From: a virus
UHGV virus genome: UHGV-1546770
DNA: 31,581 bases
Reading direction: 5' to 3' (one strand)
Each line of letters starts with the position of its first letter. The stretch's first letter is position 1. Shown in pieces: positions 2,973 to 29,397 of the stretch. The notes beneath the pieces are model-generated. The model was not told the DNA's origin. It did no database searches and saw only the letters and a program-made list of their open reading frames with translations. Position numbers and translations under genes: made by a program.

Positions 2973-3031
2973 TTTTTCTTTTGTCCTTTCTTTTTTAAAT
3001 AATTTTTTATTGTCTTTTGACTTATGCTTGA

Positions 3032-5965: not shown

Positions 5966-6235
5966 TCAAATCTTTCTCCCCAAACAATCAACTTCAACAA
6001 CATCATTGTCGAGCACATCTGTTTCATAAAGCATCTCTTCTAGCGCATGAAGCTCATCAAAATAATATGCAAGTTTCTTCTTTAGGTTTTCTATAGCTTC
6101 TTCTTTTGTTTCGCCATATCCATAAATATTTGTTAAGTCAAAATTATGATATCTATCAGCATCATTAAATAAATAACAAGTATGTGACTGAGACTTTTCC
6201 TTTCCATCATTATGATGTGCGATTTTCATTAACAT
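5966..6235 (-). CDS. hypothetical protein (89 aa; start trimmed from track ORF 5966-6298)
   Basis: Internal ATG at 6233-6235 preceded by AAAGGAG at about 6 nt; the longer track ORF would overlap 6210-6410 by 89 nt. Confidence 0.5.
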   Translation of the reverse strand: MLMKIAHHNDGKEKSQSHTCYLFNDADRYHNFDLTNIYGYGETKEEAIENLKKKLAYYFDELHALEEMLYETDVLDNDVVEVDCLGRKI

Positions 6236-6410
6236 AATTTGCTCCTTTCGGATCGTACATGTCACAAGCACCTGTGTCCTCATAACACAAATGCCCAACT
6301 ATAAAAGTCATCCCCATTTCTTTTTCTTTAGGAGTTGGATGTGGGATATCACAGCATAAATTCCAATCTCCACAACCAATATAATGCTTGCATGTCCCGC
6401 ATTTATCCAT
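6210..6410 (-). CDS. hypothetical zinc-ribbon protein (66 aa)
   Basis: CGTCKHYIGCGDWNLCC motif; downstream of promoter at 6535-6562. Confidence 0.45.
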   Translation of the reverse strand: MDKCGTCKHYIGCGDWNLCCDIPHPTPKEKEMGMTFIVGHLCYEDTGACDMYDPKGANYVNENRTS

Positions 6411-6534
6411 TTATCTTACGCCTCTTTCGTAAAAAATAGATACATATAAGCCAATCCTTATATTCATTTGACATTTGTTGATTGCTCCTTTATAAATTTG
6501 TTGCCTTAATGTACTATAATTTTATACTGTAGCC

Positions 6535-6562
6535 AGTATATCATATATCTGCTATTTGTCAA
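6535..6562 (-). promoter_or_regulatory. sigma70-type promoter (TTGACA-N16-TATACT)
   Basis: Minus strand TTGACA aatagcagatatatga TATACT in the 6411-6734 intergenic region. Confidence 0.4.
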
Positions 6563-6607
6563 TATGGCAAATTGTACAAAACTGTAGTTTATATTTTGCA
6601 ATTTTTA

Positions 6608-6643
6608 TATAAAAAAATAACTCCCACTATATAAGTGGGAGTT
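6608..6643 (-). terminator. putative intrinsic terminator
   Basis: Hairpin AACTCCCAC-tatataa-GTGGGAGTT followed on the minus strand by a T-run (complement of A7 at about 6611-6617); downstream of the helicase gene. Confidence 0.5.
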
Positions 6644-6734
6644 TATGTATAATTAAATCAATACATTGCTAAATATTATTTAATTAATACTATCAATCTT
6701 AAGACTATATCCAAGGATCTCACCTTTGTTGGCT

Positions 6735-8282
6735 TTACATTTTCTTCTTAAGTACACCAATTTCTTTCCAAACATTTCCGTCCATATCTACTTCAAAGCA
6801 GATCAAATCATTCTTAGAACCAACTCTGTTCTTTACAATTCTTAATCCAACATAATTTTTATCATATCTTAAATCATGTTCTATTGGCTCTCCCCAAGTA
6901 TCATCTTCACAGACATATACATATTTTTGCTTGTCGTCTGCTGTTAGGTGTTTCCACATTTGCATTTGGTCAGTAACATGCATCATTCTCTTTGAACTTG
7001 CGATCTCTTGAGAATTTAAGTTTTCAATGGGGATATCATGCGCTGAATCTGTAAGCTGGAAAGTACAAATACAATACATTTTTGTTTCATGAATCCACTC
7101 TGTAATTTTTGTAGCAGTTGCGGCTAACTTTGCAAAGTCTTCAAGTCCAGAACATTTAAGTGTATCATATGCTACACCATCACACTTGTAAATTGTATTG
7201 GCTTTTTTGATTTCCATTTCAAGCACTTCATCTTCATAGCAAGAGCCGATATTCTTAAACAAGAATTTGCCACTACTTTCAGATTCAACCCATTGCATAA
7301 TTCGTTGCACCTTACGATATTCAGAAGATGTTTCATAAATTCTCTTTTTATAAGACTCTTCATCTTCTGTATACACACCATTATCATCCATTTGTCTATA
7401 GATATACTTTCCGTTATCATCTTTATATGATCCGAGTGCAATTTCTCTTTCTGGTTTATAAATATCTTTAATTCCATGTAGCTCTTGAATCTCTGGAGAA
7501 TTAATGCATGTAACTAAGAAGTTCAATTTAATGCTCTCTGCTGACATTTCGTTTGCAAGCAATAGAATTTTTTGCTTTTGAACAAGGACTAGATACGCAA
7601 TAAGATAAACGAGATTTCTGCCCTTACCACTATTGCTCAAAGCTCCTGTCATCAAAACGTTTCCGGGAAGTAATCCTCTATAATACTTCTGAAGATATGG
7701 CCATGGCCCAGCAACACCCATAGATGGCATGCACAAGAATTGGTCAATACATGAAACTGCGTTCTCTGTAAGAACAACAGGTTCATCAATTGCTTGTACT
7801 TTATTAGCTACCTTGTCAATTCGACCACGAACAATTCTACAAATATCATCTGGCGTTAATGCATTGAAATTCTTAATTGCCAAGATTTTTGATACGTCAT
7901 ATCCAGTCTCATTAAAAGCCCTTAGTAATGAAAACTTTTTAAATATTGAAAGATAATTCTTAATATCATGAGGGTCACTCATTGCCATTAATTCTTTAAT
8001 TGTCTTATATCCACCATACTGTCTGTATTGTTTAAAACGCTCTTTAGACATGCTACAGAACGTATTAATTTTCAATTCAGTAAAATCTTCAGAATATGAA
8101 ACATAATAATCAGAAAATAACTGATAAAAAAACTCACATGCCTTGTCCGAAAAATCATATTTTGGGACAATTGAGGTTCCATATGTTAGATATAATGTTG
8201 GCTCTTTATAAAATGATCCAACTACCAGCATTTCGGACTGGCTATTAGTTAATTCAAGTTCCATATTTTCACTTCCTATCAA
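6735..8282 (-). CDS. DnaB-like replicative helicase family protein (515 aa), divergent P-loop
   Basis: P-loop-like GALSNSGKGR, and C-terminal LRIVKNRVGSKNDLICFEVD resembling the DnaB-family KxRxG motif; sits in a replication-type gene neighbourhood. Confidence 0.5.
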   Translation of the reverse strand: MIGSENMELELTNSQSEMLVVGSFYKEPTLYLTYGTSIVPKYDFSDKACEFFYQLFSDYYVSYSEDFTELKINTFCSMSKERFKQYRQYGGYKTIKELMAMSDPHDIKNYLSIFKKFSLLRAFNETGYDVSKILAIKNFNALTPDDICRIVRGRIDKVANKVQAIDEPVVLTENAVSCIDQFLCMPSMGVAGPWPYLQKYYRGLLPGNVLMTGALSNSGKGRNLVYLIAYLVLVQKQKILLLANEMSAESIKLNFLVTCINSPEIQELHGIKDIYKPEREIALGSYKDDNGKYIYRQMDDNGVYTEDEESYKKRIYETSSEYRKVQRIMQWVESESSGKFLFKNIGSCYEDEVLEMEIKKANTIYKCDGVAYDTLKCSGLEDFAKLAATATKITEWIHETKMYCICTFQLTDSAHDIPIENLNSQEIASSKRMMHVTDQMQMWKHLTADDKQKYVYVCEDDTWGEPIEHDLRYDKNYVGLRIVKNRVGSKNDLICFEVDMDGNVWKEIGVLKKKM

Positions 8283-8944
8283 ATTAAGTCTTCCAAAAGA
8301 TCGCTAATATCCCCTAATCCATCATTCTGTTCAACTGCTTTAATTTTGCTATAATCAATGTTTACACTCTTTTTAACGCGACTTTGTTCCTCTTTCTCTT
8401 CTGCTTCTTTCTTTGCTTTTTCCTTGGCTTTTGAATATTTTACATAATTACTCATTAAAATAGCAAGATCATAGTTAACTCTTACCTCTCCGTCAATCAT
8501 CTTGCCATGATGCTTGTTCCATGCATTTGTTTTGTCTAGTTCTTTCTGATAGTCCTTCCACATATCAAACAATGTTTCTAAGTCAATTGGCTTGCACCGT
8601 TTTCCATTATATTTTCCAGATTGAATGTCTGCAATCATTGACCAAAAACGACGACTTAATGCCCCAACATCATAATGTGCAATCAAATACTCATTGAATT
8701 CGTCTTGCACAAAACGATGCATTAATTTCTTTTTTGCTTCTAATTCTAGTTGATCTAAATTCTGTAAGGCATCTGAATAAATGGACGAGTACCTGTTGTT
8801 TTTTAGTACTCGCCCATTACACATTGTTTTAAAACATTCAGTATGATAGCTTTTCTGTTTGTAAGAAACCATATGCATATCATTTTTTGTCAAAACAATA
8901 TCTTCCCCACAGAACGCGCATTTTCTAATTAAAGTGGCGCTCAT
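8279..8944 (-). CDS. hypothetical zinc-ribbon protein (221 aa), possible replication accessory factor
   Basis: N-terminal CAFCGED...HTEC ribbon; K/E-rich C-terminus; 4-nt overlap with the helicase gene start suggests coupling. Confidence 0.5.
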   Translation of the reverse strand: MSATLIRKCAFCGEDIVLTKNDMHMVSYKQKSYHTECFKTMCNGRVLKNNRYSSIYSDALQNLDQLELEAKKKLMHRFVQDEFNEYLIAHYDVGALSRRFWSMIADIQSGKYNGKRCKPIDLETLFDMWKDYQKELDKTNAWNKHHGKMIDGEVRVNYDLAILMSNYVKYSKAKEKAKKEAEEKEEQSRVKKSVNIDYSKIKAVEQNDGLGDISDLLEDLI

Positions 8945-8956
8945 TGTTATGTCTCC

Positions 8957-10033
8957 TTACTGTGAAACTACTTCAAGAATCTGGTTTAGAATAGCAATAT
9001 CTGTAACCTTGGCGAACTGGTCTGGAAGTCCTGCTTCCTTTATGGCAGCACGTTTGGCTTTCTTGTCTTCAGGAGAAAGAGATGACAGAACTCCCTTAAT
9101 TTCTGCCTTAAGGTTCTTGCATTCTTCGTCTTTTCTAATTTCCACATCCAACTCGTCTGTTTCCATTAGATCCTCTTTATGTGAATTATAATAGTCTTCC
9201 TTTTCTTTTTTCTCCTGCTTTGATTTGCTCTCAATATATTCGTCTGTTGCGTCATGAGACTTAATAGAGTTCTTAATTGCATCCTTGACAGTATCAATAT
9301 AATTCTTTGCAGAAACTTCTACTCTGTCAGCAATATCTTCAAATCTACCACCTGCATCAATATATCCATTTCCACGAAAGTACATCCATCTGCTAACACC
9401 ATCTACATGCCCATCAGTAATTTCTCTTTCAATAACACCCATCATACAAATATCTGCCTTGTTAGCAAAAATCGAATCATAATCTGTTGAAAGATTAGAT
9501 GTAAGCATCTGGTATTCATCGCCATTTTTCTCTTTAATATCCTTAATCTTAGTGTGCCCAATAAACACTAGACAGTACCCACTAGATTCTAGTCTGGTAA
9601 TAACGGAATTAATTAGCTCATCCACTTTTCTACGCCCAGCTCCATAACCTCCAAAACACGCATTAAATTCATGCTTGGTGCCAGACTTCTTATAGTCAAG
9701 ACGCACAATTTCCTTTTGAGCCATAGAAATCCATTCGTCAACGGTATCAAATGCAATAATAGAAAACGAATTTTCGTCCTTATTTTCTACTAGTTCGTCA
9801 ACGACTTCCATTAGTGTAGCCCAATCTGGGCAATCAGCAACCATTAGATTGTCAATAGCAAGATAACCTCTCTCATTTCCACAGCTAATCAATAGGCCAT
9901 GACTCATGTCGCCATATAGTTCTTTAATTAAATTTGCAAACAATGTAGTTTTGCCCCATTTTTTTGGTGCTCTCCAATAGTGGCGATAGTTAGTAATATC
10001 TACTGTTACCTCATTTTTCTTCCATAAAGCCAT
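8957..10033 (-). CDS. P-loop ATPase, RecA-like (Sak4/AAA_24-like)
   Basis: Walker A APKKWGKTT, Walker B-like SIIAFDTVDEW, and LVFIGHTK motif; K/E-rich C-terminal extension. Confidence 0.5.
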   Translation of the reverse strand: MALWKKNEVTVDITNYRHYWRAPKKWGKTTLFANLIKELYGDMSHGLLISCGNERGYLAIDNLMVADCPDWATLMEVVDELVENKDENSFSIIAFDTVDEWISMAQKEIVRLDYKKSGTKHEFNACFGGYGAGRRKVDELINSVITRLESSGYCLVFIGHTKIKDIKEKNGDEYQMLTSNLSTDYDSIFANKADICMMGVIEREITDGHVDGVSRWMYFRGNGYIDAGGRFEDIADRVEVSAKNYIDTVKDAIKNSIKSHDATDEYIESKSKQEKKEKEDYYNSHKEDLMETDELDVEIRKDEECKNLKAEIKGVLSSLSPEDKKAKRAAIKEAGLPDQFAKVTDIAILNQILEVVSQ

Positions 10034-10040
10034 AATAATA

Positions 10041-11051
10041 TCAGTCTCCTTTACCTTTTAAACTATTTATATATCTATCTAACTCTTCTTGTGTGATATA
10101 TCCTTTTTCAATTGCATCTTCCGCATACAACCAATGCAATGCCTCGCCTGTTTGTGGATGTTTATACGTATAATTTTGTTTACCTCTACAGCACTTTGTA
10201 ATAGAGCTTGGATCACATCCATATAAATTTTGTACTTCTTTTGCTCCCCAAAAAATTTGATTTAATTCTATACAATATATTCTTCTACATTTCCACCAAT
10301 TACTACCTTTACGAGAATCACTCATCTTTTTCTTTGCTTCTTCTGTGTGATGTTTCCCATACATTGGATGATTGCTTGGATTTATAAATCTTTCTTTTGC
10401 TTTTTCTGATAGATTTAATTTTTGTTCATCTGACAATTTTTTACCTAAACTGGGATGTTGTTTTCCTATCCATATATGTTTGCCTTTAGTTGTTGGATTT
10501 GCCCAATATAATTTATGTTTTTCATACCATTGTTTATATGTTTCTTCATCCATGCGTTCTTTTGGAGAAACTTTAAACTGTGGATTATTCTCGCCTACTA
10601 ATCCTGCTCTTCCATACATTGGATGATTATTTGGATCTGAAAGTCTTTCTTTTGCAGCTTTTGATATCTTTTTTCTTGTTTCTTTACTTGGAGTCCATCC
10701 TTGCGTTGTTCCTCCACCATAAACAAGATTATACCAATTGTTAGATTCAACAGCATTAAAGAAAACACTATAATTATATTCCATTTCATTTAATTCTTCT
10801 GCAGAATAAGCAATATCAATTACATTTCTTACAAAATTTTCTTTTCCATATTTGTCAATTGCTTGTTTAAATGCTGCACCACTACCAAGATATTCTTGCC
10901 AATTTCCATAGAATTTTCTTTGGCCTAAATATCTTTTGCCATCAATCAAATTCGTTGTGATATAAATAAATCCATATGGATCTTTTACTTCCGTATATGT
11001 TGTATCTTGTAGCCCATCAACGGAAGAATTCATTTCTTTTAATTCTTCCAT
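10041..11051 (-). CDS. GIY-YIG homing endonuclease with NUMOD3 repeats and NUMOD1-like HTH
   Basis: N-terminal YGFIYITTNLIDGKRYLGQ (GIY-YIG), repeated NHPMYG...K..S motifs, C-terminal ELNQIFWGAKEVQNLYGCDPSSITKCCRGK helix-turn-helix. Confidence 0.7.
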   Translation of the reverse strand: MEELKEMNSSVDGLQDTTYTEVKDPYGFIYITTNLIDGKRYLGQRKFYGNWQEYLGSGAAFKQAIDKYGKENFVRNVIDIAYSAEELNEMEYNYSVFFNAVESNNWYNLVYGGGTTQGWTPSKETRKKISKAAKERLSDPNNHPMYGRAGLVGENNPQFKVSPKERMDEETYKQWYEKHKLYWANPTTKGKHIWIGKQHPSLGKKLSDEQKLNLSEKAKERFINPSNHPMYGKHHTEEAKKKMSDSRKGSNWWKCRRIYCIELNQIFWGAKEVQNLYGCDPSSITKCCRGKQNYTYKHPQTGEALHWLYAEDAIEKGYITQEELDRYINSLKGKGD

Positions 11052-11124
11052 CTATTATCACTTCGCTGTCTATAATTTAGTATTGTCTAGGGAAGCTTTA
11101 ATTCTTCCCTAGACTTATGGATTC

Positions 11125-12201
11125 TTACCATGGCTCATCTTCGTCGTCAGATTCATCGTCGCCCCAATCATCATCCACATTGGATGTTGACTCTGCCTTA
11201 CCAGTGAAATCCTGTTCTGCTTTCTTTGATGCATTTACCTTCTTAATTGCCTCATCAATTGCCTTTTCAGTATATGTTTCTTTGTCAATAGTTGATGGCT
11301 TTGCACCTGTAATAATAAGTTCTCGATGAGTCGGTGCAAAAACTCTCTTATTGTCCATATCATTAGATTCGCCCCAGCAATCATCGTCTTCCTCATCATT
11401 CACGTCTTCAACATTATTAACAACATTGATGTGTCCATGAACCTGAATGGAATTATAAGGCTTTAGCCCACTACGCATCTGCTTTGCGAGTTTTGCATCT
11501 TCAATAATAAATTCAGCAGACTCAATAGAGTTATAATTCACAATCTTTGCATCTACCACAAATCGACCAGTTGGCTTGTCGTTTTCTCTTTCCTGATCAA
11601 TACCAACAAAAACAATTGTCTGCGTAAAATCATGAGCGGGAGCATAATCCTCCGCCTCAAAGTCAACATCATTCTGACATAGAGAAATTTGTGTTGGGAC
11701 AAACTTTGTGGTACGAGAGACTTCCCCATCTTTGTTAGTATAACTGCCAAATTCTAGATTTCCTTTAACAAAAACAGAATCACCATCCTGAAGATTCTCG
11801 CTAATGTATTCACATGCGTCATACTCAGTAAGCGTCTTGTTGTCGTTTCTTACCTTTCCGTTTTCGTCCTTGATCTTCTGAAGTCCAGTAAGCACACCAA
11901 TCATACGATAGCCTTCAGGAGCCTTCTTAATTCTGTCTTTCCATGCAATTGCCTTTGTATCAGTATTGCCAGTGTCTTTATCCTTCTTACTAAAATACAC
12001 CTTGTCACGCGGCATACCATTAAGCGTTGGGAAAATTGTCTTCTTGTCATCATACTCCACGCCAAAATTAATCATTCTGAACTCTTTGCCAGTTCTTGTC
12101 TGCTTTTCTACGTAGAAACTATCCTTTTCTACTCCGCTTACAATTCCTCTAACCTGAAAAGTTCCCTTGGTTTGTGGAAGTTCAAAAAGTTTGTTTGCCA
12201 T
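11125..12201 (-). CDS. putative ssDNA-binding protein (358 aa) with acidic C-terminal tail
   Basis: C-terminus DDDWGDDESDDEDEPW (acidic tail ending in an aromatic residue, as in SSB/gp2.5-type proteins); lies in the replication module. Confidence 0.4.
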   Translation of the reverse strand: MANKLFELPQTKGTFQVRGIVSGVEKDSFYVEKQTRTGKEFRMINFGVEYDDKKTIFPTLNGMPRDKVYFSKKDKDTGNTDTKAIAWKDRIKKAPEGYRMIGVLTGLQKIKDENGKVRNDNKTLTEYDACEYISENLQDGDSVFVKGNLEFGSYTNKDGEVSRTTKFVPTQISLCQNDVDFEAEDYAPAHDFTQTIVFVGIDQERENDKPTGRFVVDAKIVNYNSIESAEFIIEDAKLAKQMRSGLKPYNSIQVHGHINVVNNVEDVNDEEDDDCWGESNDMDNKRVFAPTHRELIITGAKPSTIDKETYTEKAIDEAIKKVNASKKAEQDFTGKAESTSNVDDDWGDDESDDEDEPW

Positions 12202-12253
12202 ATTTTATTAGTCTCCTTTTCCTATAATTTTGTATTGTTTAATAAAATAAAAA

Positions 12254-12463
12254 TTAATACTTATAATATCTTTCATCCATGACCGCATTATAATATGTGT
12301 ATTTGTCTAAAATGTCTTTCCCTATGTTCAACATATAATTTTCGTGCTCACAGCATGGACATCTCGCTTGTATATATAAATACTCAATGTAATTATTTTG
12401 TTCATCAACCTGAAAAATTGTTCCACATTTCTGGCATTGAACATTGACGCTCTTTGATTTCAT
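12254..12463 (-). CDS. hypothetical zinc-ribbon protein (69 aa)
   Basis: CQKCG...CPCCEHEN motifs; downstream of two consensus promoters. Confidence 0.5.
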   Translation of the reverse strand: MKSKSVNVQCQKCGTIFQVDEQNNYIEYLYIQARCPCCEHENYMLNIGKDILDKYTYYNAVMDERYYKY

Positions 12464-12532
12464 TCATCATTCATCCCCCTTTCTCAACAATTGAAAAGAC
12501 TATAATTTTATATTACATCTCATTACGATTGC

Positions 12533-12561
12533 ATTATACCATAACAATTGCGTCTTGTCAA
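12533..12561 (-). promoter_or_regulatory. sigma70-type promoter, exact consensus TTGACA-N17-TATAAT
   Basis: Minus strand TTGACA agacgcaattgttatgg TATAAT. Confidence 0.6.
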
Positions 12562-12735
12562 GTTTTTTATCGAAGATCGAAAAATTTTGTATTTCACTTT
12601 TACTTTATATTAATTCGCTGCTGATTATTGCGCAATTTCCATTTAACTCGATATTCGCAATTCCATTGTTCTTTTATTTTTTGTACCAATCATAACGTAT
12701 TGTGATTCTTACATTATAAATTTTTCGCTTATTTT

Positions 12736-12764
12736 ATTATACAGTACAAAATTATCATTGTCAA
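12736..12764 (-). promoter_or_regulatory. sigma70-type promoter, exact consensus TTGACA-N17-TATAAT
   Basis: Minus strand TTGACA atgataattttgtactg TATAAT, immediately downstream of the recombinase stop codon. Confidence 0.6.
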
Positions 12765-12770
12765 ATCTTA

Positions 12771-13745
12771 TTAAACCATATCATCCAAAATATTCGCGGC
12801 TTGCTGCTTTTTGTCTTTAGACATATTTGCATATCTCATAGTAGTAGCAATATTTTTATGATTAAGAACTGACGCACAAAGATAAATATCTCCAGTCTTT
12901 TCGTACAAATTAGTTGCACAAGAATGTCTCAACACATGTGGTGTAACATGCTTACTTGTCACATCCTTACTATATTTTTCTAGCATCACCCTAATGCCGT
13001 CTCTTGTAATTCTCTTTTTAAAGCTAGAAATAAACAAGGCATCTGTATTCGCCATGCTAAAATATTTGTTTCTATCCTGTAGCCACAATTCTAGCTGCTT
13101 CTTTACTCTATCGCCAAATAGAATATTACATGTTTTTCCTCTTTTTTCGATTACCTTAATAGTATTATTTTCGAAATCAATATCACCAATATCAATTTGC
13201 GTGATTGCAGATACACGCAACCCAGTAGTTAGTCCAAGCATAATAATGGCTAGATCCCTATTTTTCATCTTTTTGCTTGCAAGCTTATCAACATTTTCAA
13301 GAATCATTTGCATTTCTTTTTCTGTTAAATAAGCAACATCTGGTGTATCTTGCACTTTAGGACGTTCTGTTCTCTCCATTGGATTTTCTTTAATATAATC
13401 ATTTTCTTTAAGGAACCCAAAAAACGTATTCAATGCAGACCACTTTGTCGCACGAATACTATCACTTGTATTATAATGTCCATTGATAGTTTCTTTATTC
13501 TTCAATGCGGCAAAATATTTATTAATATCCAAAGGTGTTACCTTTTTATAAAAATCATTTGAGATTCTATTTTCATTAATAAATTCTGCAAATTCCTTCA
13601 CATATGCTACATATCTCTCAACTGTTGTATAAGATTTAGTTATACACATATAATAATAAAATTCAGAAAAAATTTTAGGAAGTCCTGTTAATTTTGCCTG
13701 CATCTTATTTGTAGCAACAATTTCCTTTTCCATTCTTCCTGTCAT
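12771..13745 (-). CDS. tyrosine recombinase / integrase (XerC/XerD-like)
   Basis: Catalytic-domain motifs TGLRVSA (Arg), HVLRHSCAT (His-x-x-Arg-His) and TMRYANM (Tyr) in the expected order. Confidence 0.85.
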   Translation of the reverse strand: MTGRMEKEIVATNKMQAKLTGLPKIFSEFYYYMCITKSYTTVERYVAYVKEFAEFINENRISNDFYKKVTPLDINKYFAALKNKETINGHYNTSDSIRATKWSALNTFFGFLKENDYIKENPMERTERPKVQDTPDVAYLTEKEMQMILENVDKLASKKMKNRDLAIIMLGLTTGLRVSAITQIDIGDIDFENNTIKVIEKRGKTCNILFGDRVKKQLELWLQDRNKYFSMANTDALFISSFKKRITRDGIRVMLEKYSKDVTSKHVTPHVLRHSCATNLYEKTGDIYLCASVLNHKNIATTMRYANMSKDKKQQAANILDDMV

Positions 13746-14509: not shown

Positions 14510-14538
14510 ATTATAACGCTATAATTTTGTTTTGTCAA
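14510..14538 (-). promoter_or_regulatory. sigma70-type promoter, exact consensus TTGACA-N17-TATAAT
   Basis: Minus strand TTGACA aaacaaaattatagcgt TATAAT; -35 overlaps the TGA stop of the methyltransferase gene. Confidence 0.6.
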
Positions 14539-15059
14539 GTATTTTGTTGAGTTTTCTTTACCCTCCATACGGGCGCGGATTTAGTTCCACCAACTCGCTC
14601 AACAGAATCAAACATCGAAAGCAAAATCTCCTCGATATCTGTTCCTTTTAGATCCATCTTTCGAGGGCTTTGAGGATAATTACAAACAAATTCTCCATTA
14701 TTTTCCATTACTAGTTTAATTTGATTCAATGTTTCAAAAAGCATTTGCAGAGAACTCTGCACATTAAGCACATTAGAAGCGAATACGATATCATACTGTC
14801 TATTCAGTGCAAATTTATCGAGTAGTACATCTCCATTGCCAACCCATAGATCATATGCTACCACATCAAATCCTTTGCTTAGAAGATATTTTGTACTAGT
14901 AGCTCCCTTCCCCGCACCAAAGTCGAGAATTGTTTTACTCTTATCCACATTACTTTCCACCCAAAGAGGAACTATTGCACGAATCTTTCCATCCTTAATA
15001 GCCGAAGCGCCTGCACTCCGACTAGTTGCTTTTGCAATTTTGATCTCCTGAGCTGTCAT
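14535..15059 (-). CDS. class I SAM-dependent methyltransferase (174 aa), substrate unknown
   Basis: Motif I ILDFGAGKGATS, acidic post-I residue in VVAYDL, and IVFASNVLNV block. Confidence 0.6.
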   Translation of the reverse strand: MTAQEIKIAKATSRSAGASAIKDGKIRAIVPLWVESNVDKSKTILDFGAGKGATSTKYLLSKGFDVVAYDLWVGNGDVLLDKFALNRQYDIVFASNVLNVQSSLQMLFETLNQIKLVMENNGEFVCNYPQSPRKMDLKGTDIEEILLSMFDSVERVGGTKSAPVWRVKKTQQNT

Positions 15060-15780: not shown

Positions 15781-16158
15781 TTATTTTACAAGTTTAACTC
15801 CAGATGATAATTTATAAGCACTTTCTTTTTTCTTCTTGGGAATTAAAATTGTATTTTGTCCTGCTATAAATTTGATATCTCCTCTGTGTGATAACAATTC
15901 TTTTGTAAGTTTAATGATGTGAGATGTTTGTGCTGCATTCATGTCTGCCATACCAATTATATGATACAAATCATCTTTCACAAACTTATCCATTTCGCTA
16001 ACTGCTGTTCTGCAAGACAAAATTGATTCATTAAGATCTTTTATTGTCATCTTACTTGTATCACGTGCATTTAAATTATACTTCGACAAGATAGTTTCAC
16101 ACTGCTCTATCTGCTTAGAAATATTTTCTACTATAATTTGATATTCTGAGTGCCTCAT
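15781..16158 (-). CDS. hypothetical protein (125 aa)
   Basis: Intact ORF in series. Confidence 0.5.
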   Translation of the reverse strand: MRHSEYQIIVENISKQIEQCETILSKYNLNARDTSKMTIKDLNESILSCRTAVSEMDKFVKDDLYHIIGMADMNAAQTSHIIKLTKELLSHRGDIKFIAGQNTILIPKKKKESAYKLSSGVKLVK

Positions 16159-16636: not shown

Positions 16637-17266
16637 TTATTTCAATTTTTCATTCACATAAAATTCAGTACCCTTATGATAACACATCTGACATCCAAGA
16701 CAACTTTTTGCTCCACAATTCACACTTACATTATTCTCTTTAATATATTCTTTGTCATATACAGTAAAGACATGATCAACAAACCAAAATCTTTCCATAT
16801 TAAGTTTCATTACCTCATTCATCTTTGGGCTGCTAACTACCAAAGAAAGATTATCAGGTTTTGCAATTTTTCTTTCATTGAACACTCTATCACAAATTGC
16901 ATAATTCTTTGTCCAAATACCAAATGAGGTATATGGATTTCTATTACAAATGTTTACATAATTAATCAACTGTGTCTCATTTTCAATATCTCCAAACGCC
17001 TCAAATCTATAAATCAGATCATTTGTAACAGGGATTTCGTTCCCTTGCAGGATCTTGGTCTTAAGAATATGTCCATTCTCAATCAAATGCTCTTTCAGTG
17101 ACTTGCGCATCTTCATATAGGTGCTTGCATAACAATGACAGCACACTCCATCTTTATCCTTCTGTCTTGCAAGACAAAATTTATTATTTGCACAGCATGT
17201 CCCAATGCTCTTCATCCCATGTAGTTTTCCAGAATGATTTGTTTCCCAAACGATTCCGTTCATCAT
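16637..17266 (-). CDS. hypothetical Cys-rich protein (209 aa), possibly Gp37/Gp68-like
   Basis: N-terminal GTCCANNKFC...GVCCHCYA cluster and C-terminal CGAKSCLGCQMC; family assignment from memory only. Confidence 0.5.
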   Translation of the reverse strand: MMNGIVWETNHSGKLHGMKSIGTCCANNKFCLARQKDKDGVCCHCYASTYMKMRKSLKEHLIENGHILKTKILQGNEIPVTNDLIYRFEAFGDIENETQLINYVNICNRNPYTSFGIWTKNYAICDRVFNERKIAKPDNLSLVVSSPKMNEVMKLNMERFWFVDHVFTVYDKEYIKENNVSVNCGAKSCLGCQMCYHKGTEFYVNEKLK

Positions 17267-19212: not shown

Positions 19213-19231
19213 AAGAATAATTTTGTATTGT

Positions 19232-19932: not shown

Positions 19933-20349
19933 TTAACCGAAATAAGTACCAACAATATGACAAATATGTTTTCTATAGTCGAAATCATTGGGAAAATATT
20001 TATTGAACTTATTTCTAAATTCGCTTTCAAGTTCTTCCATATTTGCATATGCAGTTTTGAACAAAGTGCCATAATTTTGTGTCGGTACATAATAGATCGT
20101 ATCGTCATTATATGCTTCACTGGAATTATAATCGTCGTTTCCGTTGTCATCAATTACCATTGCTTCGCCAGTAAATCCACTGATATACTCTATGACTCCT
20201 TCTTCGTACAATGCATCATTAAAGCTATATTCGTCATCATTATATTTCTCTTCTGTGTATTCTCTATAATACTTTGAACAAATAGTTTTCAACATCTCCC
20301 TTGTCATCACAAGACCGTAATCATTAACTGCATAATATCTCATACTCAT
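19933..20349 (-). CDS. hypothetical protein (138 aa)
   Basis: AAAGGAGG RBS before the ATG; acidic, Tyr-rich. Confidence 0.55.
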   Translation of the reverse strand: MSMRYYAVNDYGLVMTREMLKTICSKYYREYTEEKYNDDEYSFNDALYEEGVIEYISGFTGEAMVIDDNGNDDYNSSEAYNDDTIYYVPTQNYGTLFKTAYANMEELESEFRNKFNKYFPNDFDYRKHICHIVGTYFG

Positions 20350-20788: not shown

Positions 20789-20815
20789 TTGCCGACTTCT
20801 TTAATTTTGTTTTGT

Positions 20816-22784: not shown

Positions 22785-23762
22785 TTAAGCTCCAACCCCA
22801 ACCTTTGCGTTAATCAGCTTGACGAACTCGTCCATCCATGCATGACCATCCATAATCTTTCCCCACCGGTTTTCTTCATAGTTTGCAGTGTTTCTGTTCG
22901 GAGCGCTATGACCAATCATATCACTCATCGCATTCACAGCGCCCCATGCAGTTCCTTTGAACTTAGCAATATCGGGCATGAAGTAGCAGATAGAATAGTT
23001 ATCTTTTACTTTCTGAATGTTTGCTTTCTTGCGATCAGAATCATTTTCCGTTACAGGGAACATCTGGTCAAGGATTTCATTGATCTGCTCAAAGTCAAGT
23101 TTGATATTCGCAAGTCTATCTGCCTCTTCGTCAAGTGCATCCATATAAAGATTTGCCATGCCCAAACAATGTCTCGCTTCTTCAAGCTTCTCGTCAAGAT
23201 TCCCAATATGCTTTGTGCTCCAAGAACGCTGAGCAGTATTGAGTGCAAGTGAGAGAGTATTATTGCAAACGACTCGAATTGGAGTCATGCCAATCTTGAT
23301 CGCTCCAGTTCCGTCATGAGAATTAGAGAACACCATATAAGGTTCCACATCATCATCAAGCACTTTCTTAGTCGGCATCTTTGCAAGCAGCCAAACTCTT
23401 TTCCCTCCGTTGAGAGAACCTGCGGTTTCATAGCGAACAATTCCATCTTCCGTTTCACCAACAATTGCATCAGTGAAAGAAAATGCGTCTACATTCTGTA
23501 CAATTTTATATCTATTCGTTACAATGCCAAGCACAGTTTTATCATCACTTCTGATGTTTGCTTTGTAGTTCTTGATTTCCGTTCCATCATCCATAAAGAC
23601 AGGAGTCTGTTCAACAGTCCAATCAAGCCCTGCCAGTTTGAGCGCTTCTGCACTGTTGGGAGCATCCGCAAGGATTTTGCATCTATCCTGCGTCTCCATA
23701 TAATGCCAAGGTTTCTCGCGTACACTAAACATGCTGTCGTTCATTTCAATGCAATGAGCCAT
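22785..23762 (-). CDS. DUF932 / TIGR03299-like phage-plasmid protein (start trimmed from track ORF 22785-23882)
   Basis: Motif MVFSNSHDGTGAIKIGMTPIRVVCNNTL matches the family signature as recalled from memory; internal ATG at 23760-23762 preceded by AAAGGAG. Confidence 0.55.
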   Translation of the reverse strand: MAHCIEMNDSMFSVREKPWHYMETQDRCKILADAPNSAEALKLAGLDWTVEQTPVFMDDGTEIKNYKANIRSDDKTVLGIVTNRYKIVQNVDAFSFTDAIVGETEDGIVRYETAGSLNGGKRVWLLAKMPTKKVLDDDVEPYMVFSNSHDGTGAIKIGMTPIRVVCNNTLSLALNTAQRSWSTKHIGNLDEKLEEARHCLGMANLYMDALDEEADRLANIKLDFEQINEILDQMFPVTENDSDRKKANIQKVKDNYSICYFMPDIAKFKGTAWGAVNAMSDMIGHSAPNRNTANYEENRWGKIMDGHAWMDEFVKLINAKVGVGA

Positions 23763-23994
23763 AATTCTTATCTCCTTTAACAAAATACATATTGATTCTT
23801 GCTTTTCTTGCTTTTCTTTTTTTCTTTTTTGCCGCACGCTGTTTCCAAACAGGATGGTCTGGGTACATTTCAAAACAATCACATTGTTTTTGCAAGCATC
23901 TTTTTCGTTCTACTTGATTCCATGTCGCTCCCTTGTCATGAAAATGGCAGTAACCACACACATTGTCGCTTTCTGACCCATACAAGCAAAGCAT
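23746..23994 (-). CDS. hypothetical zinc-ribbon protein with basic tail (82 aa)
   Basis: AAAAGGAGG RBS; CGYCHFHD...CDCF motifs and a KKKKRKARKAR stretch; 17-nt overlap with the downstream gene. Confidence 0.5.
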   Translation of the reverse strand: MLCLYGSESDNVCGYCHFHDKGATWNQVERKRCLQKQCDCFEMYPDHPVWKQRAAKKKKRKARKARINMYFVKGDKNYGSLH

Positions 23995-24105
23995 TATATA
24001 CCTCCTTTTCTTTGCAATATTTTTGTATTGTATAAGACAAGGTGCAAAAGCCTCATCTTCCTTAACGACTCTTATATCAAGAACAGATGTTTCTTATAAA
24101 TCATT

Positions 24106-25806: not shown

Positions 25807-25951
25807 TTGTTTTACTCCATATACTTTTGTATTGTTTATTGTTTTTGTATTAATTTTCCATGTTATATTCGCATTTTTTGATAGTGGCTTCATTTACATT
25901 GCAAACTATACTGCTCAAAATTGAAATTATATTTTGCGTTCTATATACGCA

Positions 25952-26116: not shown

Positions 26117-27067
26117 TTAATAATACTTGTATGCATCTTTGTCAACATTTACGTCAGTGATATCTCCATATGTGATATCAGAATGTGCCATCAAGAATCT
26201 ACCAATTGCCTCTTCCATTGAATATGCGTCCGTGTCGTACCACTCTGTGTTTCCGTTAGTGTTAACATACTCAATCAGATAATAGCCATAATTGTATTCT
26301 GGCTCATCACGATTATTGTCTTCAAGATATCTGTCAATGTCAAACAGAGAATCATATCGCACAGGTGCTTCCACATAATCGAATTTGTCATTCTCCGTTG
26401 TGCGCTCAAGGATTTTACATGCCTCCTTAATGCTTCTTTCCATTTCAGAAAGAATGACATATTCACTTTTTGTATGTGCTTTGTAATAACCACAAGAAAG
26501 ATTCACTGCTGCACAACCAAGAGCGGGAGCGATTTCACAGATATCAGAATAAGATCCATACGCTGTTTTATAAAATTCCTTTGTAATAAAGTCCTCGAAC
26601 TCATCATTTGCACAGGAATAAAACACTGCATCATTTGCGTTGGCACGATCAAATTCAATGATGTAATTGAACTCAAGATTTCTTGCCAGCTCAGAGTCTG
26701 CAAACTTACTTGAGCCTACGCAACCAACCTCTTCGTCCTCGCAGAACAGAACAGAGCAGTTAAACTTTTCAAGAATCTTGAAAATCATATAGACACCGCA
26801 TCTATCGTCGCCTCCGATTCCGTTAGGGCTTGAAACTTTATTGTTCTTTTTACTATACATGAACATATTAGGAAGCTTTTCATGCACAGTATCAAGATGT
26901 GCAACCAGCAGCACAGGAAATTTCCCTTGTGCATATACATACCCATCTCTGTTAAGAACTGTTCCATGAGTCTTTTGCAGCTTCTGTCTAACATGATTCT
27001 TTAGACTTGCTTGAGACATCTTGCAAATTTTTTCAAACTCTTTATTCATAATTGATTTTACCTCCAT
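26117..27067 (-). CDS. putative co-catalytic zinc metallopeptidase-like protein (316 aa)
   Basis: Ordered motifs VLLVAHLDTVHE, GIGGDDRCGV and FCEDEEVGCVGS resemble the His/Asp, Asp-Asp and Glu-Glu metal-ligand blocks of M20/M28/M42-type enzymes; assignment from motif memory only. Confidence 0.45.
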   Translation of the reverse strand: MEVKSIMNKEFEKICKMSQASLKNHVRQKLQKTHGTVLNRDGYVYAQGKFPVLLVAHLDTVHEKLPNMFMYSKKNNKVSSPNGIGGDDRCGVYMIFKILEKFNCSVLFCEDEEVGCVGSSKFADSELARNLEFNYIIEFDRANANDAVFYSCANDEFEDFITKEFYKTAYGSYSDICEIAPALGCAAVNLSCGYYKAHTKSEYVILSEMERSIKEACKILERTTENDKFDYVEAPVRYDSLFDIDRYLEDNNRDEPEYNYGYYLIEYVNTNGNTEWYDTDAYSMEEAIGRFLMAHSDITYGDITDVNVDKDAYKYY

Positions 27068-28869
27068 TAAACCGCTTCATCAATGTCTGTTTCATTCTCA
27101 AGAATTTCTCTCAGGCAATCTTCGCAGTACATCTTTCCTTTGTGTTCTCTCAAATTGTTGTTTCTAAAACATTCTCCACACTCTTCACAGCAACTATAAT
27201 AATAATCACAACAATCGTCGCACACATATTCATCCTGAGATTCAATATAGTTCATACACTCTCTTGGATAATATTCTCCACATTCCGCGCAATACTCATA
27301 ATATTCGTCTCTGCAATTTTCACAGACACAAATTTCATAGCCTCTTGAATTATGAACATATGTCCCTTCGCCAACGTAATATTCATCACAGTCATTGCAA
27401 TGGAAAACACAATCTCCACAATAAGGCTCTCCGTCAATATAGATGGCATCATCTTCATCGACATATTCGCCGCATGCAGCACATTTAACTCCGTGATGAC
27501 AGCAAGAAATATTGTCGTCGCAATCATGCTCATAACCACATTCGATGCAAATTGGTGTATGTCCAACAGTAATGCAATTCTCGTTGTCGTTTCCTTTAGG
27601 ACGGCTAAGAGTGCAATTTCCAAAGTTGTCGTAATCTCTATAATGAGTACCTTCAGACTCAATATATCTGCCTGCTTCGCTAGTTCCCTTACTCACAGTC
27701 CAGAAGTTCGGGAAATCAAAAATTTCAGACATGATTTTCTGAACAATTGCTCTGAAAGCGGTGTAGCCGGTGCTGCATCCATCATTGTCTTGCGGATAAA
27801 GTCTGCCCTGAATCAGTTTGTCTTCTCCCCAGTGATACATCTGACGGTTAATCTTTGGCTCATTCCAGAAATCGTTTCCATCATAAGATGCATCCACAGT
27901 GTAAAACACCATAGAAGGAGAATCGAGCATATAACTAATAGTACCAGAAGAATACATTCCCTGATAACTATTAGGCATGCCTCTTTTGTTTTGCTTATCA
28001 ATTGTATGACAGCTCGCCCAGCTATTGCCAAAGCTCATTGTGAGATAATCAAGAGGATTCACAGAAAGAATAGTATGCCTTGTAATCTTGAGCGGATTGA
28101 GCGCGTCAGCATACTTTGCGAATTCCCTATTGTACTCAGGATGCTTGCTAATACCAATGTAAGCAAGAAGCTTATTGATAACACGACTCGTCTTCTGCCC
28201 GTCATGTGCATGAATTTCAGGACAAATTCTGTTTAGCTCATCAGCAAGTTCGCTATCAATATACTGAGAAGTATAGGCTGGAATTCTAATCAAGAAAGCA
28301 AAGATATTTGTTGGGTATTTCTGTCCATTCAGTGAAGTTTCTTTCTTCATGCTTTCGGGCATAAAATTATTTTCTTTTACATATTCGACCACATCACCAT
28401 CAATCACCCATGACTTGAATCTCTCCAATGCATTACGATCAGTTACACGTTCAAAATCATGGCTAAATACAATCATGAATTTGCCTTCCAGATAGTTCGG
28501 ATGCTTCTTAAATGCGGCAATCAGGTCTTTCTTGTTATTCGCCCATGTGTCAATGATTTTGTTCAGTGCCCTGTCCGTATATTCATAGTCATATTCATCA
28601 AGCAAGTTTTCCATCTGGTCAAGAAGAATTTCTCTTTCTTCTTCAGTGATAATATTACTTACATCCATTTTACTTTCTCCTTCCTTTTCATCAAGCAAAT
28701 CAAAGTATTGCGCATCTACCCAATAGCCTTCGCCGTTTATGTTTTTAACAAAAATGTTGTCGTCAGTATATTTACTAATCTCTACAACACGCCCTCTCCA
28801 ACCGTTTGTTGTGATGCCATAAGGAGCACCACGCTGTGCAATTACTCTATCACCAAGTTTAAATTTCAT
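27067..28869 (-). CDS. large hypothetical protein (600 aa) with C-terminal tandem zinc-ribbon array
   Basis: Longest ORF in the window; C-terminal ~150 aa contain at least 8 CxxC pairs in repeated units (CAACGEYV, CNDCDEYY, CENCRDEYY, CAECGEYY, CEECGEC); plus-strand ORF 27352-28236 is its shadow. Confidence 0.65.
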   Translation of the reverse strand: MKFKLGDRVIAQRGAPYGITTNGWRGRVVEISKYTDDNIFVKNINGEGYWVDAQYFDLLDEKEGESKMDVSNIITEEEREILLDQMENLLDEYDYEYTDRALNKIIDTWANNKKDLIAAFKKHPNYLEGKFMIVFSHDFERVTDRNALERFKSWVIDGDVVEYVKENNFMPESMKKETSLNGQKYPTNIFAFLIRIPAYTSQYIDSELADELNRICPEIHAHDGQKTSRVINKLLAYIGISKHPEYNREFAKYADALNPLKITRHTILSVNPLDYLTMSFGNSWASCHTIDKQNKRGMPNSYQGMYSSGTISYMLDSPSMVFYTVDASYDGNDFWNEPKINRQMYHWGEDKLIQGRLYPQDNDGCSTGYTAFRAIVQKIMSEIFDFPNFWTVSKGTSEAGRYIESEGTHYRDYDNFGNCTLSRPKGNDNENCITVGHTPICIECGYEHDCDDNISCCHHGVKCAACGEYVDEDDAIYIDGEPYCGDCVFHCNDCDEYYVGEGTYVHNSRGYEICVCENCRDEYYEYCAECGEYYPRECMNYIESQDEYVCDDCCDYYYSCCEECGECFRNNNLREHKGKMYCEDCLREILENETDIDEAV

Positions 28870-29343: not shown

Positions 29344-29397
29344 GATGTAAATTCCCTTTCTGCCTTATAAGGCTATAATTTTGTGATGTATTCCTCT

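Follow-up and report, generated by a model that had tools for sequence, protein, structure and literature searches.

What is a gene for a GIY-YIG endonuclease doing among the replication and recombination genes of a gut phage, and what travels with it? The question is raised by a 31,581-nt stretch of UHGV virus genome UHGV-1546770, here called the window, to which all coordinates refer. On its minus strand the gene order is tyrosine integrase, s69, SSB-like (single-stranded DNA-binding) protein, endonuclease, ATPase, YorH-like zinc protein and DnaB-like helicase. The last five of these open reading frames (ORFs) all lie where an earlier note on this DNA had placed them. The endonuclease gene, at 10041-11051, is probably a free-standing, site-specific homing endonuclease gene (HEG) of the Seg/I-TevI type that has settled inside an SPbeta-like operon, and homing is what we infer to have brought it there. 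It comes as part of a sharply bounded block: genomes with the block carry an ATPase referred to here as type A, the closest HEG-less genomes carry type B, and a third type is called B2.

The predicted protein begins with a Seg/I-TevI-like catalytic domain, continues through two NUMOD3 repeats, and ends in an I-TevI-like DNA-binding region. Profile searches bear out the GIY-YIG/NUMOD assignment made in the earlier note, with scores above the Pfam cut-offs for PF19835 SegE_GIY-YIG (33.6 bits, cut-off 25) and NUMOD3 (PF07460; 47.2 bits, cut-off 20.4), and above that of TIGR01453 (74.7, cut-off 56.05). The protein also matches phrog_314, “homing endonuclease”, at 1.9e-38, and hundreds of Seg-like relatives with 26-32% identity are present in annotated phages. 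Because a phmmer search against PDB sequences returns nothing meaningful, a fold search and a family profile were needed. The AlphaFold2 (AF2) model, built on 54 homologues, has a mean confidence (pLDDT) of 82.8, rising above 90 across residues 21-100. For the N-domain of the model, the fold search retrieves the I-TevI catalytic domain (1LN0/1MK0; probability 1.00, TMt 0.67-0.69, root-mean-square deviation 3.1 Å), with the UvrC GIY-YIG domain ranked below it. The family profile recovers 1I3J, the DNA-binding domain of I-TevI (E 0.002). Residues Y30, Y41, E91 and N108 are invariant across the 54 homologues and would correspond to I-TevI Y6, Y17, E75 and N90.

As that note also had it, the gene is free-standing. 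Both of its neighbours are complete ORFs that match full-length homologues in HEG-less genomes, no Intron_gpI match reaches the Rfam gathering threshold anywhere in the window, and the HEG lies in neither an intron nor an intein. Neither tblastn nor Pfam finds further copies of it in the window. Since it has a weak Shine-Dalgarno (SD) sequence and no visible promoter of its own, it is probably read from operon transcripts.

The gene is present in some close relatives and absent from others. Among IMG/VR relatives whose flanking genes are 96-99% identical, 13 contigs have the HEG and 12 do not. Since HEG-less relatives exist, the gene is not common to all, and the proposed insertion between conserved genes holds to that extent; however, the close HEG-less relatives have another ATPase rather than an uninterrupted junction. 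In place of ATPase-A they encode ATPase-B, an AAA_24/RadB-like protein of 393 aa (AAA_24 32.6 bits; RadB match 4.5e-5), or in two cases B2. BLASTP aligns A and B at 61% over the last 51 aa only, and in hhalign only the last 58 columns of the two profiles align (probability 98%); beyond the common AAA_24 match, homology of the two cores is not demonstrable by these sequence comparisons.

The limits of the exchanged block are equally sharp at the DNA level. BLASTN alignments of the window with the nearest HEG-less genomes break off at 11071 and restart at 9010, and a segment of about 1.15 kb encoding ATPase-B takes the place of the 2.1-kb block. In a column-by-column scan, every fixed difference between the A and B classes falls within 11123-9011 and none in the flanks, while polymorphisms in the SSB-like and downstream genes are unlinked to either class. 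ATPase-A is 99-100% identical among all genomes with this HEG, and every ATPase-A of at least 99% identity, in three collections, has the HEG upstream. The right-hand joint coincides with a C-terminal module of about 55 residues (...KVTDIAILNQILEVVSQ), which is common to the otherwise non-alignable A and B ATPases in every lineage; one possible role of this module is the docking of a lineage-specific partner. The A/B dimorphism is global. One SSB-like allele (P0153, 97% identical to that of the window) is found in eight contigs from human and pig gut, all of them HEG-less with ATPase-B, and in samples from human and pig gut at least two phage lineages retain both states, HEG plus A and B without a HEG.

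The second of these lineages, with an SSB-like protein that shares only 41% identity with that of the window, repeats the pattern. One group carries a 37%-identical GIY-YIG HEG with an A-type ATPase (66% identical), and the other a B-type ATPase (71% identical) without a HEG. Two of its members, L086 and L093, differ by the same A/B swap between flanks that are 99.7% and 98.5% identical, with breakpoints directly past the leader motif described below and about 150 nt before the ATPase stop codon. Further afield, HEG homologues of 45-65% identity lie upstream of a B-type ATPase in L045, L049, L050 and L052, and upstream of an A-type ATPase in L051 and L122. A-type ATPases without a HEG occur in L016/L079 and L123, and only these distant lineages show the uninterrupted SSB-like/ATPase-A junction; taken with Geobacillus virus E3, Brevibacillus phage Sundance and L071-L085, empty sites are found beside both ATPase types. 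The linkage of the HEG to ATPase-A is thus not universal, and the constant feature is the site: all HEG homologues examined (37-65% identity; five sampled ones of 45-65%, those of L051 and L122, and the 37% HEG of the second lineage) sit in the YorF/AAA_24 intergenic region, whichever ATPase follows.

This site has a recurrent architecture. When empty, it reads SSB-like stop codon, hairpin, ACAATACAAAATTA-type motif, about 10 nt, SD and ATG; when filled, the HEG lies between the leader motif and the SD, and its ORF stops within, or immediately past, the SD of the ATPase gene. The copy of the motif at this site in the window, CAATACTAAATTATAG, is a variant of CAATACAAAATTATAG, for which the window has 16 matches with at most three mismatches (1.15 expected); all but one of these are on the minus (coding) strand. 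Most lie 15-30 nt upstream of start codons. Some are 5-20 nt downstream of sigma-70-like -10 boxes, and those at 2627 and 14534 coincide with the spacer and -35 box of a TTGACA-17-TATAAT promoter. Distant relatives keep the motif, and the insertion point of all three HEG types is directly 3' of it.

A second landing site, empty in the window, lies in the s69/SSB-like intergenic region. In seven relatives its motif/SD junction is occupied by a paralogue of the HEG, HEG2 (47% identical overall and 77% in the catalytic domain), and in three others the s69/SSB-like junction holds a different GIY-YIG gene. Where this third gene lies upstream of the SSB-like gene (L039/L040/L014), the SSB-like allele shows 81% instead of about 90% identity, aligned from residue 3, which hints at HEG-linked divergence at this site too.

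The hairpin between the SSB-like gene and the motif had been described in the earlier note as a perfect 9-bp inverted repeat (11085-11112) flanking the endonuclease gene. The repeat is real, but its stem is of 11 bp, and no other perfect inverted repeat in the window reaches 11 bp with a short loop (shuffled mean 0.23). It does not belong to the HEG. A hairpin occupies the same position downstream of the SSB-like gene in HEG-less relatives and also in distant lineages, its stem sequences being unrelated, and RNAalifold on 11 lineages recovers 12 hairpin pairs, nine of them with compensatory double changes. The hairpin is a conserved structural element of the SSB-like 3' region, with processing, stability or attenuation as possible roles. 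Its occurrence in HEG-less genomes led us to reject it as a terminal repeat, target duplication or specific regulator of the HEG; an intrinsic terminator was also rejected, as the U-tract is absent and a terminator scan gives no call.

The HEG evolves under looser constraint than its neighbour, with a ratio of nonsynonymous to synonymous polymorphism (pN/pS) of 0.33 versus 0.03 for ATPase-A. Thirteen of the 14 copies are intact. The remaining one, otherwise 98% identical, has a W119* nonsense change (TGG to TGA; L023/L003/L056, IMGVR_UViG_3300045988_132810) between the catalytic and DNA-binding parts, likely an early step of decay. The pN/pS value, the nonsense copy and the presence of HEG2 at an analogous junction are signs of a selfish element.

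How such an element would reach its site, and take the ATPase with it, can be proposed from what is established about Seg and I-TevI enzymes. The HEG product would cut genomes lacking the HEG at, or close to, the leader/SD junction, which the HEG insertion would itself disrupt. Repair of the double-strand break from a co-infecting HEG-bearing genome would then copy the HEG. Because A and B DNA can be aligned only in the last 50-150 nt or so of the ATPase gene, this repair would resolve only there, and the HEG would drag ATPase-A along, the two being co-converted as a block. For the insertion between replication genes that was first proposed, the fixed site and the polymorphism are seen, but ATPase-A co-segregates with the HEG, and the homing step is a presumed one. 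A bolder version, which we hold only tentatively and think unlikely, is that the HEG family recognises the leader/SD junction upstream of several genes and drives the replacement of ATPase-B by ATPase-A. Such recognition would explain the paralogues at analogous junctions of neighbouring intergenic regions, and if the bolder version is true, a selfish nuclease is a vehicle for shuffling recombination ATPases that defences reportedly sense.

Several observations weigh against homing. The linkage of HEG and ATPase-A comes down to few independent events, one per lineage, and HEG-bearing and HEG-less states occur at roughly equal frequency, with no pattern of a sweep. The cleavage site is not predictable; comparison of ATPase 5' ends with and without the HEG yields no diagnostic pattern. 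No conserved arginine equivalent to I-TevI R27 is identified in the Seg-like domain across the 54 homologues. Finally, the B2 ATPases of L030 and L036 lie between flanks of 84-97% identity with no HEG, which implies an allele swap without it, and ordinary recombination at the same joints would in principle be sufficient.

This last point leads to the main rival, in which ordinary homologous recombination at the hairpin/leader and C-terminal-module joints swaps A, B and B2, and the HEG merely rides along, inactive or irrelevant. In its favour, B2 has moved into lineage-1 backgrounds without any HEG (L030, L036), the complete lack of linkage between the flanks and the block implies frequent recombination, and one HEG copy is already a pseudogene. 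The phages moreover encode a Sak4-like annealase together with an SSB, and such pairs are known to promote recombination (PMC5928155, PMC5499656). Against it, 13 of 14 HEG copies are intact, and pN/pS is below 1. Without site-specific re-invasion, it is also hard to see how the HEG family keeps its site across lineages whose neighbours are 40-55% identical and whose ATPases are of both types, and paralogues at the analogous junction of the adjacent intergenic region are a further difficulty. We regard this explanation as doubtful.

It is more improbable still that the GIY-YIG protein is kept for the benefit of the phage instead of for its own spread, for example by excluding co-infecting relatives, with marker exclusion as a weapon, by making breaks that feed recombination-dependent replication through the SSB/Sak4-like pair on either side, or by helping to swap recombinase alleles sensed by host defences. 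The placement of the HEG between SSB-like and annealase-like genes in a single operon and the long-lived occupancy of the site across lineages would fit such a role. Phage recombinases, Sak4 among them, are reportedly targets of host and satellite defences (PMC11846896), and a T-even Seg enzyme is reported to aid immune evasion (PMC13096335). However, about half of the close relatives do without the HEG, it is less constrained than its neighbours, one of its alleles is a nonsense mutant, and nothing in the data connects either ATPase type to a defence system. An ORF inside a group I intron, as the TIGR01453 and JGI names “group I intron endonuclease” would have it, is effectively refuted by the complete flanking ORFs with their full-length homologues in HEG-less genomes and by the lack of an Intron_gpI match at the gathering threshold in the window, the name being generic for the GIY-YIG plus NUMOD architecture.

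Table 1. Coordinates of the endonuclease gene, its landing sites and the neighbouring features in the window.
Feature	Position	Strand	Basis or remark
GIY-YIG homing endonuclease, free-standing, 336 aa	10041-11051	-	PF19835, NUMOD3, TIGR01453 above cut-offs
Polymorphic 2.1-kb block: intergenic region, HEG and all but the last ~53 nt of ATPase-A	9011-11123	-	BLASTN, fixed differences
C-terminal ~55-residue module common to ATPase A and B; right-hand recombination joint	8957-9130	-	BLASTP, hhalign
Hairpin, 11-bp perfect stem, 8-nt loop	11085-11095 / 11104-11114	-	Begins 10 nt past SSB-like stop codon
Leader motif copy CAATACTAAATTATAG of CAATACAAAATTATAG	11070-11085	-	Directly 3' of hairpin, 18 nt upstream of HEG start codon
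Second HEG landing site, s69/SSB-like intergenic, empty in window	12202-12253	-	Leader motif at 12222-12237
All minus-strand leader motif copies	2466-2481, 2612-2627, 2997-3012, 6514-6529, 11070-11085, 12222-12237, 12500-12515, 14519-14534, 16131-16146, 19215-19230, 20069-20084, 20799-20814, 24015-24030, 25819-25834, 29373-29388	-	
Tyrosine integrase	12771-13745	-	PF00589, 121 bits
Consensus sigma-70-like promoters	12764-12736 and 12561-12533	-	
s69, 69-aa zinc-ribbon ORF	12254-12463	-	
YorF-family SSB-like protein, 358 aa	11125-12201	-	phrog_2367 6.9e-44
AAA_24 / Sak4-like P-loop ATPase, type A, 358 aa	8957-10033	-	AAA_24 79 bits (cut-off 27)
YorH-like protein, 221 aa, N-terminal CxxC...HxxC motif	8279-8944	-	Homologues tagged PF26927 Phage_SPbeta_YorH (weak)
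Remote DnaB-like helicase, 515-aa ORF from TTG	6735-8282	-	phrog_19 9.4e-30
Intrinsic-terminator-like hairpin with T-run	6619-6643	-	~90 nt past helicase stop codon

The surrounding genes (Table 1) form a module that, judged by its predicted products, resembles yorF-yorG-yorH-yorI of SPbeta, with an SSB-like protein, a Sak4-like ATPase, a YorH-like protein and a DnaB-like protein; a literature search on the function of yorF, yorG and yorI returned nothing useful. The only terminator-like site in the region is the hairpin at 6643-6619, where the operon probably ends, so that everything from s69 to the helicase looks like a single transcription unit.

Of the functions that the earlier note had given to these genes, that of an ATPase is clear from sequence. 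Its AAA_24 profile match, at 79 bits, upholds the proposed assignment, and with a match to phrog_124 “Sak4-like” at 8.7e-24 it is by sequence a clear AAA_24/Sak4-like protein, for which an annealing activity is at most predicted. The labels “SSB-like” and “DnaB-like” are sustained by remote matches (phrog_2367, phrog_19 and PDB entries), but both proteins fall below Pfam thresholds. The SSB-like protein scores 22 bits against Pfam SSB (PF00436; cut-off 26), over one beta-hairpin segment only. It is annotated as PF27337 YorF in the precomputed annotation of the collection, where some homologues do have a PF00436 match. Its family profile finds ten bacterial SSB chains in PDB, the best being 1SE8 at 1.9e-4, all on one OB-fold segment. 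The acidic C-terminal tail ends in DEDEPW, and this D/E-rich...PW form is conserved. An AF2 model with a pLDDT of 46.9 was unusable. The zinc protein at 8279-8944 has no match in the local Pfam or PHROGs.

For the helicase, gene callers place the start at an ATG at 8264, giving a protein of 509 aa, and this is probably the true start. No Pfam profile matches it at E of 0.01 or less, DnaB_C included. The phrog_19 match covers residues 5-508, an alignment to E. coli DnaB (6BBM, 8.8e-5) spans the Walker A motif, TIGR03600 is matched at 2e-5 (23.7 bits, cut-off 498), and the DTLK, QLxD and KNR motifs are conserved in the family alignment. With PHROG, PDB and NCBIfam in agreement and Pfam silent, the protein is a remote relative of DnaB. 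Its Walker A motif (residues ~213-222), GALSNSGKGR, has a noncanonical GKG where the canonical GKSR is found in more distant members of the family. The Mg2+-binding Ser/Thr is thus a glycine in this lineage, and the protein is yet 99% conserved over dozens of genomes.

The HEG is hosted by a human-gut phage of about 150 kb, Firmicute-type and from an uncultured family. A human-gut metagenome scaffold (ENA ERZ28586238, 31,554 bp) matches the window over 8.4 kb at 100% identity, and the relatives are viral contigs of 130-160 kb. A megablast of positions 6000-13000 against the INPHARED phages gives no match; that collection offers distant synteny at the protein level only, in Geobacillus virus E3, Brevibacillus phage Sundance, the Bacillus vB_BanS group and the Lactococcus 949 group. 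In the first two of these the SSB-like gene adjoins the ATPase gene, without a HEG. A scan of GTDB genomes with the SSB-like profile gave a single match, in a Clostridium metagenome-assembled genome, with no host assignment and no sign of common prophages.

Elsewhere in the window, a tRNA gene array occupies positions 2-1290 of the minus strand, with seven genes called by ARAGORN and four by Rfam; it includes an odd 91-nt ARAGORN call, “tRNA-Tyr (ata)”, at 482-572, and among the tRNA genes Rfam finds a skipping-rope RNA (RF02924, 77.9 bits) at 246-325. Many close relatives have an extra segment of about 1.25 kb between the integrase and s69 (about 12671-12719; L105 974-2214, L112 888-2215), with an 83-aa ORF and the gene for a second tyrosine recombinase, which is MrpR-like. 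Neither the window nor L104 has this segment, a further case of presence/absence polymorphism. Pfam matches to other ORFs are limited to those at 14535-15059, 16637-17266, 22785-23882 and 26117-27067 (Methyltransf_23, GP88, DUF932 at 192.8 bits, and peptidase M28/M20-like). Some 20 further ORFs of at least 100 aa are without a family, including one of 600 aa at 27067-28869.

Free-standing HEGs between phage replication genes are textbook material for the T-even phages and are increasingly recognised elsewhere. What is new here is the extension of the pattern to an uncultured family of gut phages of about 150 kb with an SPbeta-like module, and the unusual divergence of the co-inherited neighbour. 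Dozens of near-identical genomes that differ by one sharply bounded 2.1-kb block make an unusually clean natural experiment, in which the block couples a HEG to the exchange of one Sak4-like ATPase for a very different one. Several questions become testable in this way: where a Seg-like enzyme cuts, how far co-conversion reaches when the neighbour offers no homology, and whether HEGs promote the exchange of analogous genes. Annotators should check the ATPase type before taking a HEG-less relative as an “empty site” for cleavage assays.

The closest parallel is the “intronless homing” of SegE, SegF and SegG in phage T4, reportedly described by Kadyrov in 1997, Belle in 2002 and Liu in 2003. There too, a free-standing GIY-YIG gene lies between essential genes of DNA metabolism, is present or absent among related phages, and has adjacent sequence inherited with it, as in co-conversion or localized marker exclusion; Pfam moreover assigns the catalytic domain of the window's HEG to the SegE_GIY-YIG family. 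The phage here differs in being a Firmicute-type gut phage of about 150 kb with an SPbeta-like module, known from sequence, instead of a T-even phage. The co-inherited neighbour is likewise different, being a P-loop ATPase whose only alignable part is its last 55 or so residues and not a variant of the same gene.

The likeness to I-TevI, a GIY-YIG endonuclease encoded within the td intron of phage T4 (PDB 1LN0/1MK0, 1I3J), is one of architecture. Both proteins have an N-terminal GIY-YIG domain, a linker with minor-groove-binding helices of the NUMOD3 type, and a C-terminal helix-turn-helix-like domain. However, the window's HEG is not in an intron, its catalytic domain is only about 21% identical with no equivalent of Arg27 identified, and the region aligned with 1I3J begins past the I-TevI zinc finger, no zinc finger being detected in the HEG.

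The genes on either side recall the recombination pairs of Sak4 and a cognate SSB in HK620 (Hutinet 2018, PMC5928155) and in S. aureus phages (PMC5499656), where an AAA_24/RadB-like ATPase gene also lies beside the gene for an SSB-like, acidic-tailed product. Here the SSB-like partner is a 358-aa YorF-family protein below the Pfam SSB threshold, the ATPase has an extra C-terminal module, and the likeness is one of genes.

Finally, Barth, Dunham & Seed (2023, PMC10448857) describe HEGs at the boundaries of genetic exchange, with “HEG islands” in ICP1 and other phages. In what that account says of these islands, as in the window, a HEG adjoins essential genes at the edge of a segment exchanged between near-identical phages. 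The scale differs, with one HEG bounding a 2.1-kb block here and two enclosing an island of more than 10 kb there, and so does the enzyme, which is of the Seg-like GIY-YIG kind here, whereas the ICP1 HEGs are described as distinct from those of T4. We regard the block in the window as the same phenomenon as intronless homing and localized marker exclusion by T4 Seg enzymes, and as HEGs at exchange boundaries (PMC10448857).

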